Positions 32,564 to 33,810 of a stretch of 64,000 nt of DNA are shown piece by piece; position 1 is the stretch's first letter, and every line of letters starts with the position of its first letter. The stretch is from Verrucomicrobiota bacterium (GTDB taxonomy: Bacteria > Verrucomicrobiota > Verrucomicrobiia > Limisphaerales > Palsa-1400). A program made the translations under genes and the position numbers. A model generated the notes under the pieces. The model did not search any database and was not told the origin of the DNA. It saw nothing but the letters and a program-made list of their open reading frames with translations. The stretch lies in the NCBI GenBank assembly GCA_049510745.1, contig JBEKYR010000025.1, forward strand, positions 1,371-65,370, in the 5' to 3' direction.

Positions 32564-32604
32564 GGCAGGATAGCTCAGTTGGTAAAGCAGAGGACTGAAA
32601 ATCC
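32564..32604 (+). tRNA. Truncated tRNA-Phe(GAA), 5' half only (copy 1)
   Basis: GGCAGGATAGCTCAGTTGGTAAAGCAGAGGACTGAAAATCC covers the acceptor 5' strand, D-arm, anticodon stem 5' strand and loop CTGAAAA. Similarity stops in the 3' strand of the anticodon stem. No T-arm or acceptor 3' strand follows. Confidence 0.8.
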
Positions 32605-32791
32605 GATAACACATTTTTTGCTGTCATTTGCATTGTCGTGCAATCGCTGATTTCCCTCGTAACCAGACCCAAGCTGATGCTTTCTCCTTTGGCCGGTTTT
32701 GGCCATGCTATGCCATAAAAACTCGTTCAGGGATGCAAAAAGGGATACAAAGAAACTCGTATTGACACAGCCGGAGCCGCATCCGGACGCC

Positions 32792-33214
32792 TCAAGGAGT
32801 AATGAGTTGAACGTCTGGAAAATAGGTTTTAACGCGATCCGGGTCGCGCGTGACGAGCTTCATTCCGTCGGCCTTGGCATGAGCGCCTATCAGGAAGTCC
32901 GGGAGAGGAACGCGGTTTTCAGTTTTCCGTCCGTCTTTCTTCAATCGGTCCAAGTAGATGGCAAATGCCGTTGCGGCCGGAATCGCTGCTGAAATTGGCA
33001 AGGGCGCCAGCTTCAGACCCAAGCCTTCGAGCAAAGCGGGGACAGCGTCCCGGTTTTCGGCGCGCACCGACGCCTCGCTACCGACGATGGTGTTCACAGC
33101 GCCTCCTTCGCCGCCTTCCTGAACCGCCGCCGCAATCTGGCGCTTGGCCCAATCGTGAAACGGGCTGTCGGGATCGCGGGCATCAATGACAACGCTGCTG
33201 TCAAACAGAATCAC
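32792..33214 (-). CDS. vapC: PIN-domain toxin VapC
   Basis: 140 aa. ILFDSSVVIDARD...PLPDFLIGAHAKADGMKLVTRDPD is PIN-like. The GTG start overlaps the antitoxin stop (GTGA). Confidence 0.85.
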   Translation of the reverse strand: MILFDSSVVIDARDPDSPFHDWAKRQIAAAVQEGGEGGAVNTIVGSEASVRAENRDAVPALLEGLGLKLAPLPISAAIPAATAFAIYLDRLKKDGRKTENRVPLPDFLIGAHAKADGMKLVTRDPDRVKTYFPDVQLITP

Positions 33215-33459
33215 CGGGTCTCCTTTTTGATTTCATCCCAGCTTTTCGTAAACCGAAGCGGACTGCTTTCAATTGCGGCCATTGCCTCGGCGAAGGTCGG
33301 TCTGCGACGGGGCAGTTCCACCTTCCGCAGCAGAACCTCGTTCTCGCCGAGGACTTCCGGTTCGTAATAGTCGCCGGGCCGGAGCACGGAAAGCTCAATT
33401 CGATGCGCCTCATCTACTTTTACAGCGTTCACGAGAGCAATCTTCCACCAAAGCGGCAT
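33211..33459 (-). CDS. AbrB/SpoVT-type antitoxin (VapB-like)
   Basis: The ATG at 33459 gives MPLWWKIALVNAVKVDEAHRIELSVLRPGDYYEPEVLGENEVLLRKVE.., a looped-hinge-helix-like fold. It has a 4-nt overlap with vapC. Confidence 0.75.
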   Translation of the reverse strand: MPLWWKIALVNAVKVDEAHRIELSVLRPGDYYEPEVLGENEVLLRKVELPRRRPTFAEAMAAIESSPLRFTKSWDEIKKETR

Positions 33460-33464
33460 TGTTT

Positions 33465-33720
33465 TCAAGCCCGTCCTTGCCGACAAATCGACCCGGCGCG
33501 AGAGCGGCGGCTGAATGGTAAGGCGATTGATCGGGGGCCAATTCGCGTCCTGCCGGCGGCTTGTTTCATCTCGGCGACGCGGCAGCCGGTGAAACTCAAA
33601 AATTGCACCCGGCCGTCGGCGAACGTGCCGACTTCCGCTTTGGGCTTCCGCAACTCCTTGAGTTTGTCCGGGAGCCGTGCCTTGGCCGCTGAAAATACGT
33701 CCGTGTCCAAACTTGCGCAA
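33465..33720 (-). pseudogene. Tyrosine recombinase (integrase) remnant, frameshifted
   Basis: ORF 33465..33710 contains ..FLSFTGCRVAEMKQ.., matching the integrase TG-x-R-x-x-E box I region. A neighbouring frame continues with ..NRLTIQPP... It is only about 80 codons long and sits next to tRNA fragment copy 2. Confidence 0.4.
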
Positions 33721-33768
33721 ACGGGCTTGCCATTAACCTTACAACGTGCATAGTATGAACGCGGGTCA

Positions 33769-33810
33769 GGCAGGATAGCTCAGTTGGTAGAGCAGAGGAC
33801 TGAAAATCCT
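33769..33810 (+). tRNA. Truncated tRNA-Phe(GAA), 5' half only (copy 2)
   Basis: GGCAGGATAGCTCAGTTGGTAGAGCAGAGGACTGAAAATCCT has 1 mismatch to copy 1. Similarity ends at the same place, and the flanking sequences are unrelated. Confidence 0.8.

Follow-up and report, generated by a model that had tools for sequence, protein, structure and literature searches.

The Islander database holds 3919 islands, of which 3760 carry a 3' fragment of the transfer RNA (tRNA) gene and 159 (~4%) carry a 5' fragment. Tandem arrays are recognised there as well, and 2083 of the islands belong to the class with an anticodon-centred attachment site on the element (attP), the 'A' sublocation of Williams 2002 (PMC4383910). 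According to the passages of PMC6563490 that cite them, islands with a displaced 5' tDNA fragment were described as having a 'reversed target orientation' (Zhao & Williams 2002, J Bacteriol 184:859), and archaeal elements recombining with the 5'-distal part of a tRNA gene were described as well (Krupovic & Bamford 2008; Gaudin 2014; Cossu 2017), among them CalSub-E1 in tRNA-Ser.

Here we consider a 64,000-nt stretch of verrucomicrobial DNA (the window) from contig C25 of genome G000, a metagenome-assembled draft of 85 contigs, 94% complete. In the window, two copies of the 5' half of tRNA-Phe(GAA) bracket a small module with a vapBC-like gene pair and an integrase remnant. Very probably, each half is the left-end (attL-type) junction of a tyrosine-integrase element whose recombination with the anticodon stem-loop of tRNA-Phe takes place in the reversed orientation. 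The apparent anomaly of a 'decapitated' tRNA-Phe then resolves into the ordinary result of a documented, uncommon integration polarity.

The present elements are reversed-orientation tRNA islands, that is, a documented minority kind. The original prediction had suggested an unusual element with a 5'-half identity block; unusual it is, given the ~4% share in Islander, but not new (PMC4383910). As in the reversed-orientation islands, in so far as PMC6563490 presents them, there is a tyrosine integrase, an identity block that covers the tRNA from its 5' end up to the anticodon stem-loop, a 5' fragment upstream of the regenerated gene in direct orientation, and a tendency to form tandem arrays. 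Unlike the islands presented there, three integrase types use one tRNA-Phe site within one verrucomicrobial family, and 68 of 80 loci of a phylum-wide group, with five tRNA identities, have the integrase start back to back with the 5' end of a tRNA or tRNA half, at a median gap of 71 nt where the tRNA is intact. What is new here is this phylum-wide integrase group and its consistency.

Two other kinds of elements are close. With the classical anticodon-centred elements the present ones share the regeneration of the target gene and, as it seems, a crossover at the symmetric anticodon stem-loop; however, they are the mirror image, since such an element contributes the 5' part, presumably together with the promoter, and displaces the resident 5' half. 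The 5'-side polarity is shared with the archaeal elements as outlined in PMC6563490. These, in the same outline, have archaeal integrase families, some of the SSV type that splits its own gene on integration, whereas the present integrase gene remains undivided and its host is a bacterium.

Half copies and the intact tRNA-Phe gene

The 41-nt string GGCAGGATAGCTCAGTTGGTAGAGCAGAGGACTGAAAATCC has exactly two matches in the window, with 0 expected in shuffled sequence. Half copy 1 (32564–32604, plus strand) corresponds to tRNA-Phe(GAA) positions 1–41 with one mismatch, G22A, located where the 3' strand of the D-stem begins, which breaks the C13–G22 pair. Half copy 2 (33769–33810, plus strand) corresponds to positions 1–42 exactly, the 41-nt match at 33769–33809 being followed by T at 33810. 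Comparison with the intact gene of the same genome demonstrates that both copies begin at tRNA position 1 and end at positions 41 and 42, respectively, three or four bases into TCCTT, the 3' strand of the anticodon stem. The flanks of the two copies are mutually unrelated. ARAGORN identified no tRNA genes in the window or on the whole contig C25, and a relaxed BLAST search with the complete tRNA as the query yielded no 3'-half remnant in the window. Hence the string search, the comparison with the intact gene and these two scans bear out what had been noted initially about the coordinates, the single-base difference, the ends inside the anticodon stem, the unrelated flanks and the lack of a 3' half in the window.

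The explanations then offered fared less well. The first assumed that the intact tRNA originally stood at the far right end of the array and has since been deleted, the second, that successive integrations and deletions destroyed the tRNA-Phe locus. However, the genome-wide tRNA scan proposed at the same time, done here with ARAGORN, yields one canonical tRNA-Phe(GAA) in the whole genome, at C49:26280–26355. Its first 42 nt are identical to copy 2, an integrase gene lies directly upstream of it, and its contig is linked to C25 by end overlaps of 100% identity. Thus the locus has been neither deleted nor destroyed, while the 5'-half identity block and the position of the intact tRNA at the far right end stand. 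The genome contains no separate 3'-half copy.

The integrase gene beside the intact tRNA, int49, is an open reading frame (ORF) of 487 amino acids at C49:24732–26195 on the minus strand. Its start codon is 85 nt from the tRNA-Phe 5' end, and the two genes are transcribed divergently. In int49, a tyrosine recombinase, the conserved catalytic residues Arg, Lys, Arg, His and Tyr are all in place.

C25 and C49 have no direct end overlap, and the link is provided by C78 and C77. The right end of C25 shares 115 nt with the left end of C78, and the right end of C78 shares 122 nt with the left end of C49 (100% identity in both cases); these two repeats are also overlapped by the two ends of C77. The sole path using C25, C77 and C49 once each is C25–C78–C77–C78–C49, all in the plus orientation. 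Along it, the intact tRNA-Phe is reached ~81 kb rightward of copy 2, encoded on the same strand; this is the side and the orientation expected for displaced 5' fragments. The path also implies that C78 is a 7.5-kb two-copy repeat with C77 between the copies.

Three other descriptions of the halves were considered and rejected. A split tRNA gene of the Nanoarchaeum type is incompatible with the presence of the intact gene and the lack of a 3'-half copy. A group I or group II intron in the tRNA would call for a 3' exon, which is not found, and again the intact gene is present. Finally, the possibility that the 41–42-nt blocks are a widespread repeat unrelated to tRNA, named in the original prediction as what would overturn it, is dismissed, as there are three copies in the genome and no more.

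ARAGORN also reports two near-identical 75-nt 'tRNA-Phe(GAA)' genes in G000, at C73:3441–3515 (minus strand) and C74:8364–8438 (plus strand). Both calls are devoid of the usual D-loop GG and of the GTTC of the T-loop, and they may be tRNA-like elements or false calls.

Complete elements in relatives and the integrase group

Islands with the order half, integrase, intact tRNA-Phe occur within single contigs in G016 (5.3 kb), G012 (8.2 kb) and G024 (6.9 kb). Thus, the 5' fragment upstream of the intact gene, in direct orientation, is seen on one contig in these three genomes, and in G000 via contig-end overlaps. ARAGORN places an intact tRNA-Phe directly after each integrase. The integrases are of three types: A (~400 amino acids), B (409 amino acids) and C (~480 amino acids; int49 is of this type), all found in one place, immediately upstream of the tRNA-Phe 5' end and divergent from it. 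An alignment of the types shows the catalytic Arg, Lys, Arg, His and Tyr in register. The length of the identity block depends on the type (41 nt for A, 39 for B, 42 for C), and tRNA-Leu halves end at positions 38–40.

The sole exception to the alignment of the catalytic residues is the type-C integrase of G042 (L046, G042:C115:4622–6025), whose C-terminus is diverged and shortened, with no catalytic His and Tyr. Since the motif with the catalytic Tyr is missing, this element is probably immobile.

The complete type-A element is compact, 4–5 kb, and consists of the half, vapCB, cargo, the integrase on the opposite strand and the intact tRNA. A PIN gene of 140 amino acids and a small overlapping ORF are the genes closest to the half in G016 and G001. 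The type-C elements share no cargo beyond the integrase end. Tandem arrays of the form half, type-A element, half, as in the window, were observed in G041 and G001.

In the 31 family genomes searched, ~27 5'-only copies ending at positions 33–45 were found in 17 genomes, and ~2 3'-only pieces. This distribution bears on the possibility of ordinary decay, in which duplicated tRNA-Phe copies randomly lost their 3' halves, or the copies are halves of a split gene, with no site-specific recombination. The D-stem mutation of copy 1 is indeed typical of a pseudogene. However, random deletions would not end within ~4 nt in ~27 copies across 17 genomes, nor would they account for the constant distance between the tRNA and the integrase upstream, and the genome has the intact gene and no separate gene for the 3' half; we therefore regard decay as scarcely credible. 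Neither do the relatives favour an assembly artefact, that is, a chimeric metagenomic contig that joins the first half of a tRNA to unrelated DNA at a repeat. Such a suspicion is natural for a draft of this fragmentation and completeness, with contig ends in repeats, but the half, element, half arrangement with homologous element sequence is present in the independent assemblies G001, G041 and G016 (the latter of 6 contigs), the two junctions in the window differ, and copy 1 has a point mutation of its own. An artefact thus seems highly improbable.

The same chromosomal site may house different elements. G041 and G042 have a common upstream flank, followed by a type-A and a type-C element in G041 and by a type-C element alone in G042. 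In turn, G042 and G043 have a common downstream flank, 90.6% identical, next to a type-C element in G042 and a type-A element in G043. Differing occupants on homologous flanks are, as far as sequence comparison goes, the best evidence here for independent integration at one chromosomal site.

The module bracketed by the two halves in the window, E1, is homologous to the complete type-A elements at both ends. Its left arm (32605–32791, plus strand), the post-half sequence GATAACAC..TTTTTGCTGTCATTTGC, resembles the left ends in G016, G001, G009, G041 and G043. Over their leftmost 980 bp, the elements of G016 and G001 align with window 32563–33539 at 83–85% identity (blastn; for instance, 83% with L025:2269–3249), and ~150 bp of the N-terminal coding part of the G016 and G001 integrases align with window 33600–33757 at ~82% (blastn; the counterpart of the latter is L025:7194–7351). 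The integrase remnant of E1 (33465–33710, minus strand) is that of a type-A tyrosine integrase, with 74–79% identity in tblastn to the integrases beside tRNA-Phe in G016, G014, G001 and G009. Because both ends align with the G016 and G001 elements, E1 is, on this homology, a type-A element with two deletions. Missing are ~3.9 kb of cargo and most of the integrase gene, as well as the ~200 bp that separate the integrase start from the tRNA half, so that vapC, a vapB-like ORF and integrase debris are left. The complete type-A elements hold a short relic just past vapB (L025:3202–3324, L028:6284–6400) that is similar to the start of an integrase catalytic domain, which suggests an older fusion of two elements.

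The vapC gene of E1 (32792–33214, minus strand) is intact and encodes a PIN-domain toxin of 140 amino acids (Pfam PIN PF01850, 36.3 bits with the cut-off of 23.6, E 9.9e-9). It occupies the same place after the half as its counterparts, with 127 of 140 residues identical to the G016 copy (91%) and 132 of 140 to the G001 copy (94%). The vapB-like ORF (33211–33459, minus strand) overlaps vapC by 4 nt and is syntenic with a 79-amino-acid ORF that overlaps vapC in G001. It has no Pfam match at E <= 0.01, hence no known DNA-binding antitoxin family, and its position, the 4-nt overlap and the synteny in relatives point to a putative antitoxin. As in the VapBC type II modules of mobile elements, a small ORF precedes and overlaps the PIN toxin gene, and the element carries the two as its first cargo. 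Unlike in those modules, the putative antitoxin is of no recognisable family; the pair may have a role in stabilising the element.

Directly upstream of copy 1 there is another remnant, E0 (32460–32546, minus strand), once part of the N-terminus-coding sequence of an int49-like (type-C) integrase: 15 of 31 residues are identical to int49 residues 67–97 (tblastn). Window 32477–32545 is 88% identical at the DNA level to a stretch just upstream of both tRNA-Phe genes of G011, and this stretch, being 61% identical to int49 residues 55–90, is itself an integrase stub. Judging by these matches, the ~90 nt upstream of copy 1 is an integrase end and not a native flank. In G011 (L030, C72:13000–25450), two intact inverted tRNA-Phe genes lie ~7 kb apart inside a large inverted duplication, each preceded by an integrase stub like that of copy 1 in the window.

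The integrases were also surveyed in the phylum, with one genome per species, an alignment of the three integrase types as the query and selection by two integrase motifs alone. The survey yielded 80 verrucomicrobial loci; a search with int49 alone produced none. In 63 of these 80 loci an intact tRNA is encoded on the opposite strand, back to back with the integrase start at a median gap of 71 nt, and in five more a 5' half of 38–42 nt is situated in the tRNA place. The tRNA identities are Phe, Leu (five isoacceptors), Met, Arg and Lys. The tRNA is downstream of the integrase in none of the 80 loci, and the remaining 12 contain no RNA gene detectable by Rfam search. The phylum-wide integrase group thus appears always to use the reversed polarity. 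Several survey records (e.g. L064, L069, L129) belong to this verrucomicrobial family in GTDB and have NCBI titles of Candidatus Saccharimonadales, Bifidobacteriaceae or Baltobacteraceae, names that are evidently wrong.

Proposed integration in the reversed orientation

Directly observed are the anatomy of the junctions, the homology between E1 and complete elements, where the integrases lie and how conserved they are, and different occupants of one site. These observations may be combined in the following model. The attP site would bear tRNA positions 1 to ~41, with the integrase gene divergent just upstream of this half. The crossover would take place in or beside the anticodon loop, where the arms of the stem are symmetric, GGA and TCC (GGA CTGAAAA TCC). 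Integration would join the 5' half of the element to the chromosomal 3' half, producing an intact gene at the right end, and the displaced old 5' half would be left at the left end. The element would probably bring the tRNA promoter as well, from the short spacer between the integrase and the tRNA. Repeated entry into the regenerated gene would create a stack with the oldest element leftmost.

If so, the window reads from left to right as the type-C stub E0, half 1, the type-A mini-element E1 with vapBC, and half 2. Then follows the ~81-kb interval, at whose C49 end a type-C integrase and tRNA-Phe are both intact. E1 would have half 1 as its attL-type junction and end on the right with half 2, which would also serve as the attL-type junction for the type-C element that follows. 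In the window itself, integrases are represented by dead fragments only. Because copy 1 is mutated and copy 2 is devoid of the 200 bp upstream, excision of the current right-hand element would probably leave the cell with a poorly expressed or defective single-copy tRNA-Phe.

Several facts weigh against this model. Excision, a circular form or recombination have not been observed. The link between C25 and C49 depends on short end overlaps (115 and 122 nt) in a metagenome-assembled genome. Int49 scores 23.1 bits against Pfam PF00589, below the cut-off of 27.1 bits, whereas the integrases of types A and B score 72–77 bits. A scan for sigma-70-type promoters upstream of the intact tRNA-Phe produced nothing convincing. 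Sugar-catabolism operons occur within the 81-kb interval, as does a dead type-C integrase fragment (34737–34826) that has no catalytic Tyr region and is oriented opposite to expectation, so the interval is no clean single element. Even within the genus, tRNA-Phe lies in non-syntenic surroundings. Finally, a precise empty site for this genome was not recovered with both array flanks, the right border of the island and the C25 and C49 ends in up to 40 relatives; the comparison with related genomes, suggested originally as a way to the ancestral attB, thus gave no precise attB-only locus.

One sigma-70-like site is seen upstream of copy 2, inside the integrase-coding remnant, where it is probably meaningless.

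A broader model is offered tentatively, with the odds somewhat against it. A verrucomicrobial integrase group may be committed to the reversed polarity, so that its integrations replace the promoter and the front half of often single-copy tRNA genes (Phe, Leu, Met, Arg or Lys). Expression of the host tRNA would then depend on the newest element. Decay of the older halves, seen here as G22A in copy 1 and as the loss of ~200 bp ahead of copy 2, would render excision harmful and lock the stack as a ratchet, so that accessory regions grow from tRNA genes.

For annotation of Verrucomicrobiota, the pattern suggests a simple rule: an integrase back to back with a tRNA 5' end marks the right end of an island, and an orphan 5' half marks the left end. 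Island finders designed around 3' fragments will overlook the majority of tRNA islands in this phylum. The compact type-A element (half tRNA, vapBC, few genes and integrase in 4–5 kb) is a tractable system for the use of a symmetric tRNA site from the opposite side. The clade-wide pattern is more interesting than the locus itself, and merits phylogenetic and experimental testing.

The interval right of copy 2 and the flanks

The junction after copy 2, TCCT|AAAAGG, matches in its form, TCCT|AAAA(G/T)G, the type-C left ends in G041 and G042. Beyond it lies a decayed mosaic (33811–49330) with genes for a helix-turn-helix protein, a metallophosphatase, a truncated SNF2 helicase and an RNase H-like protein, a group II intron (47573–47678, Rfam Intron_gpII) and an AbiEi gene (Pfam and Rfam assignments). 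Near its left end there is a fragment of an AAA_25 ATPase gene (34042–34311, plus strand; Pfam E 1.7e-5), and window 34306–34479 resembles a region of the G041 type-C element (C105:5774–5947, 57% amino acid identity). The dead fragment at 34737–34826 (plus strand) is the C-terminal part of a second type-C integrase, 84% identical to int49 residues 418–449 in tblastn. Sugar-catabolism and glycosidase genes are found beyond 49.3 kb and on C78, C77 and C49:1–15000. Mobile genes near the C49 tRNA are those of a large serine recombinase and an ArsC-family protein, together with a small ORF beside the integrase that has no family.

G001, of the same genus, has no DNA-level homologue of almost any part of the interval between copy 2 and the tRNA, or of window 21.1–32.4 kb. 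The right flank of the tRNA, from C49:26499 onward, is on the other hand present in 41 of 41 genomes searched. The whole stretch is read as an accessory region built at tRNA-Phe, and the 81-kb interval may be one composite island. The 143 nt between tRNA-Phe and the conserved flank (C49:26356–26498, L002:8356–8498) have no counterpart beside that flank in the relatives, and in G001 the left neighbour of the conserved flank is homologous to contig C83 of G000. A synteny breakpoint thus falls right at tRNA-Phe.

The composition of the interval allows for another history, in which the scars are genuine, but a ~17-kb block (32.4–49.3 kb) was carried into a fucose-utilisation cluster by rearrangement or secondary insertion, and the C49 gene is unlinked. 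Indeed, genes of sugar and deoxy-sugar catabolism occur on both sides of the block (those of a DHDPS-family protein and an aldehyde dehydrogenase on the left; aldo-keto reductases, a PfkB kinase, an SSF transporter and an amidohydrolase on the right), the type-C integrase fragment at 34737–34826 is inverted, and tRNA-Phe neighbourhoods vary both between genera and within the genus. However, the single contig-end path from C25 to C49 has the intact gene downstream on the same strand, while the chance of hitting the right side and strand is one in four. Moreover, the junction after copy 2 has the form seen at type-C left ends in G041 and G042, and both flanks of the block are accessory, having no DNA-level homologue in G001, so they could be island cargo. 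We consider the translocation of such a block unlikely, and prefer the stack of elements in which the interval ends at the C49 gene.

The AbiEi-antitoxin region (window 48633–49166) has two further copies in the genome, on C50 and C9, and no toxin partner is seen in the window. As copies with 90–92% identity exist in other genera of the family, this gene region travels on a mobile unit. A stretch of ~240–500 nt within window 15897–16439 has at least 20 copies in the genome at 80–87% identity and could be a segment of a multicopy gene or a small repeat element.

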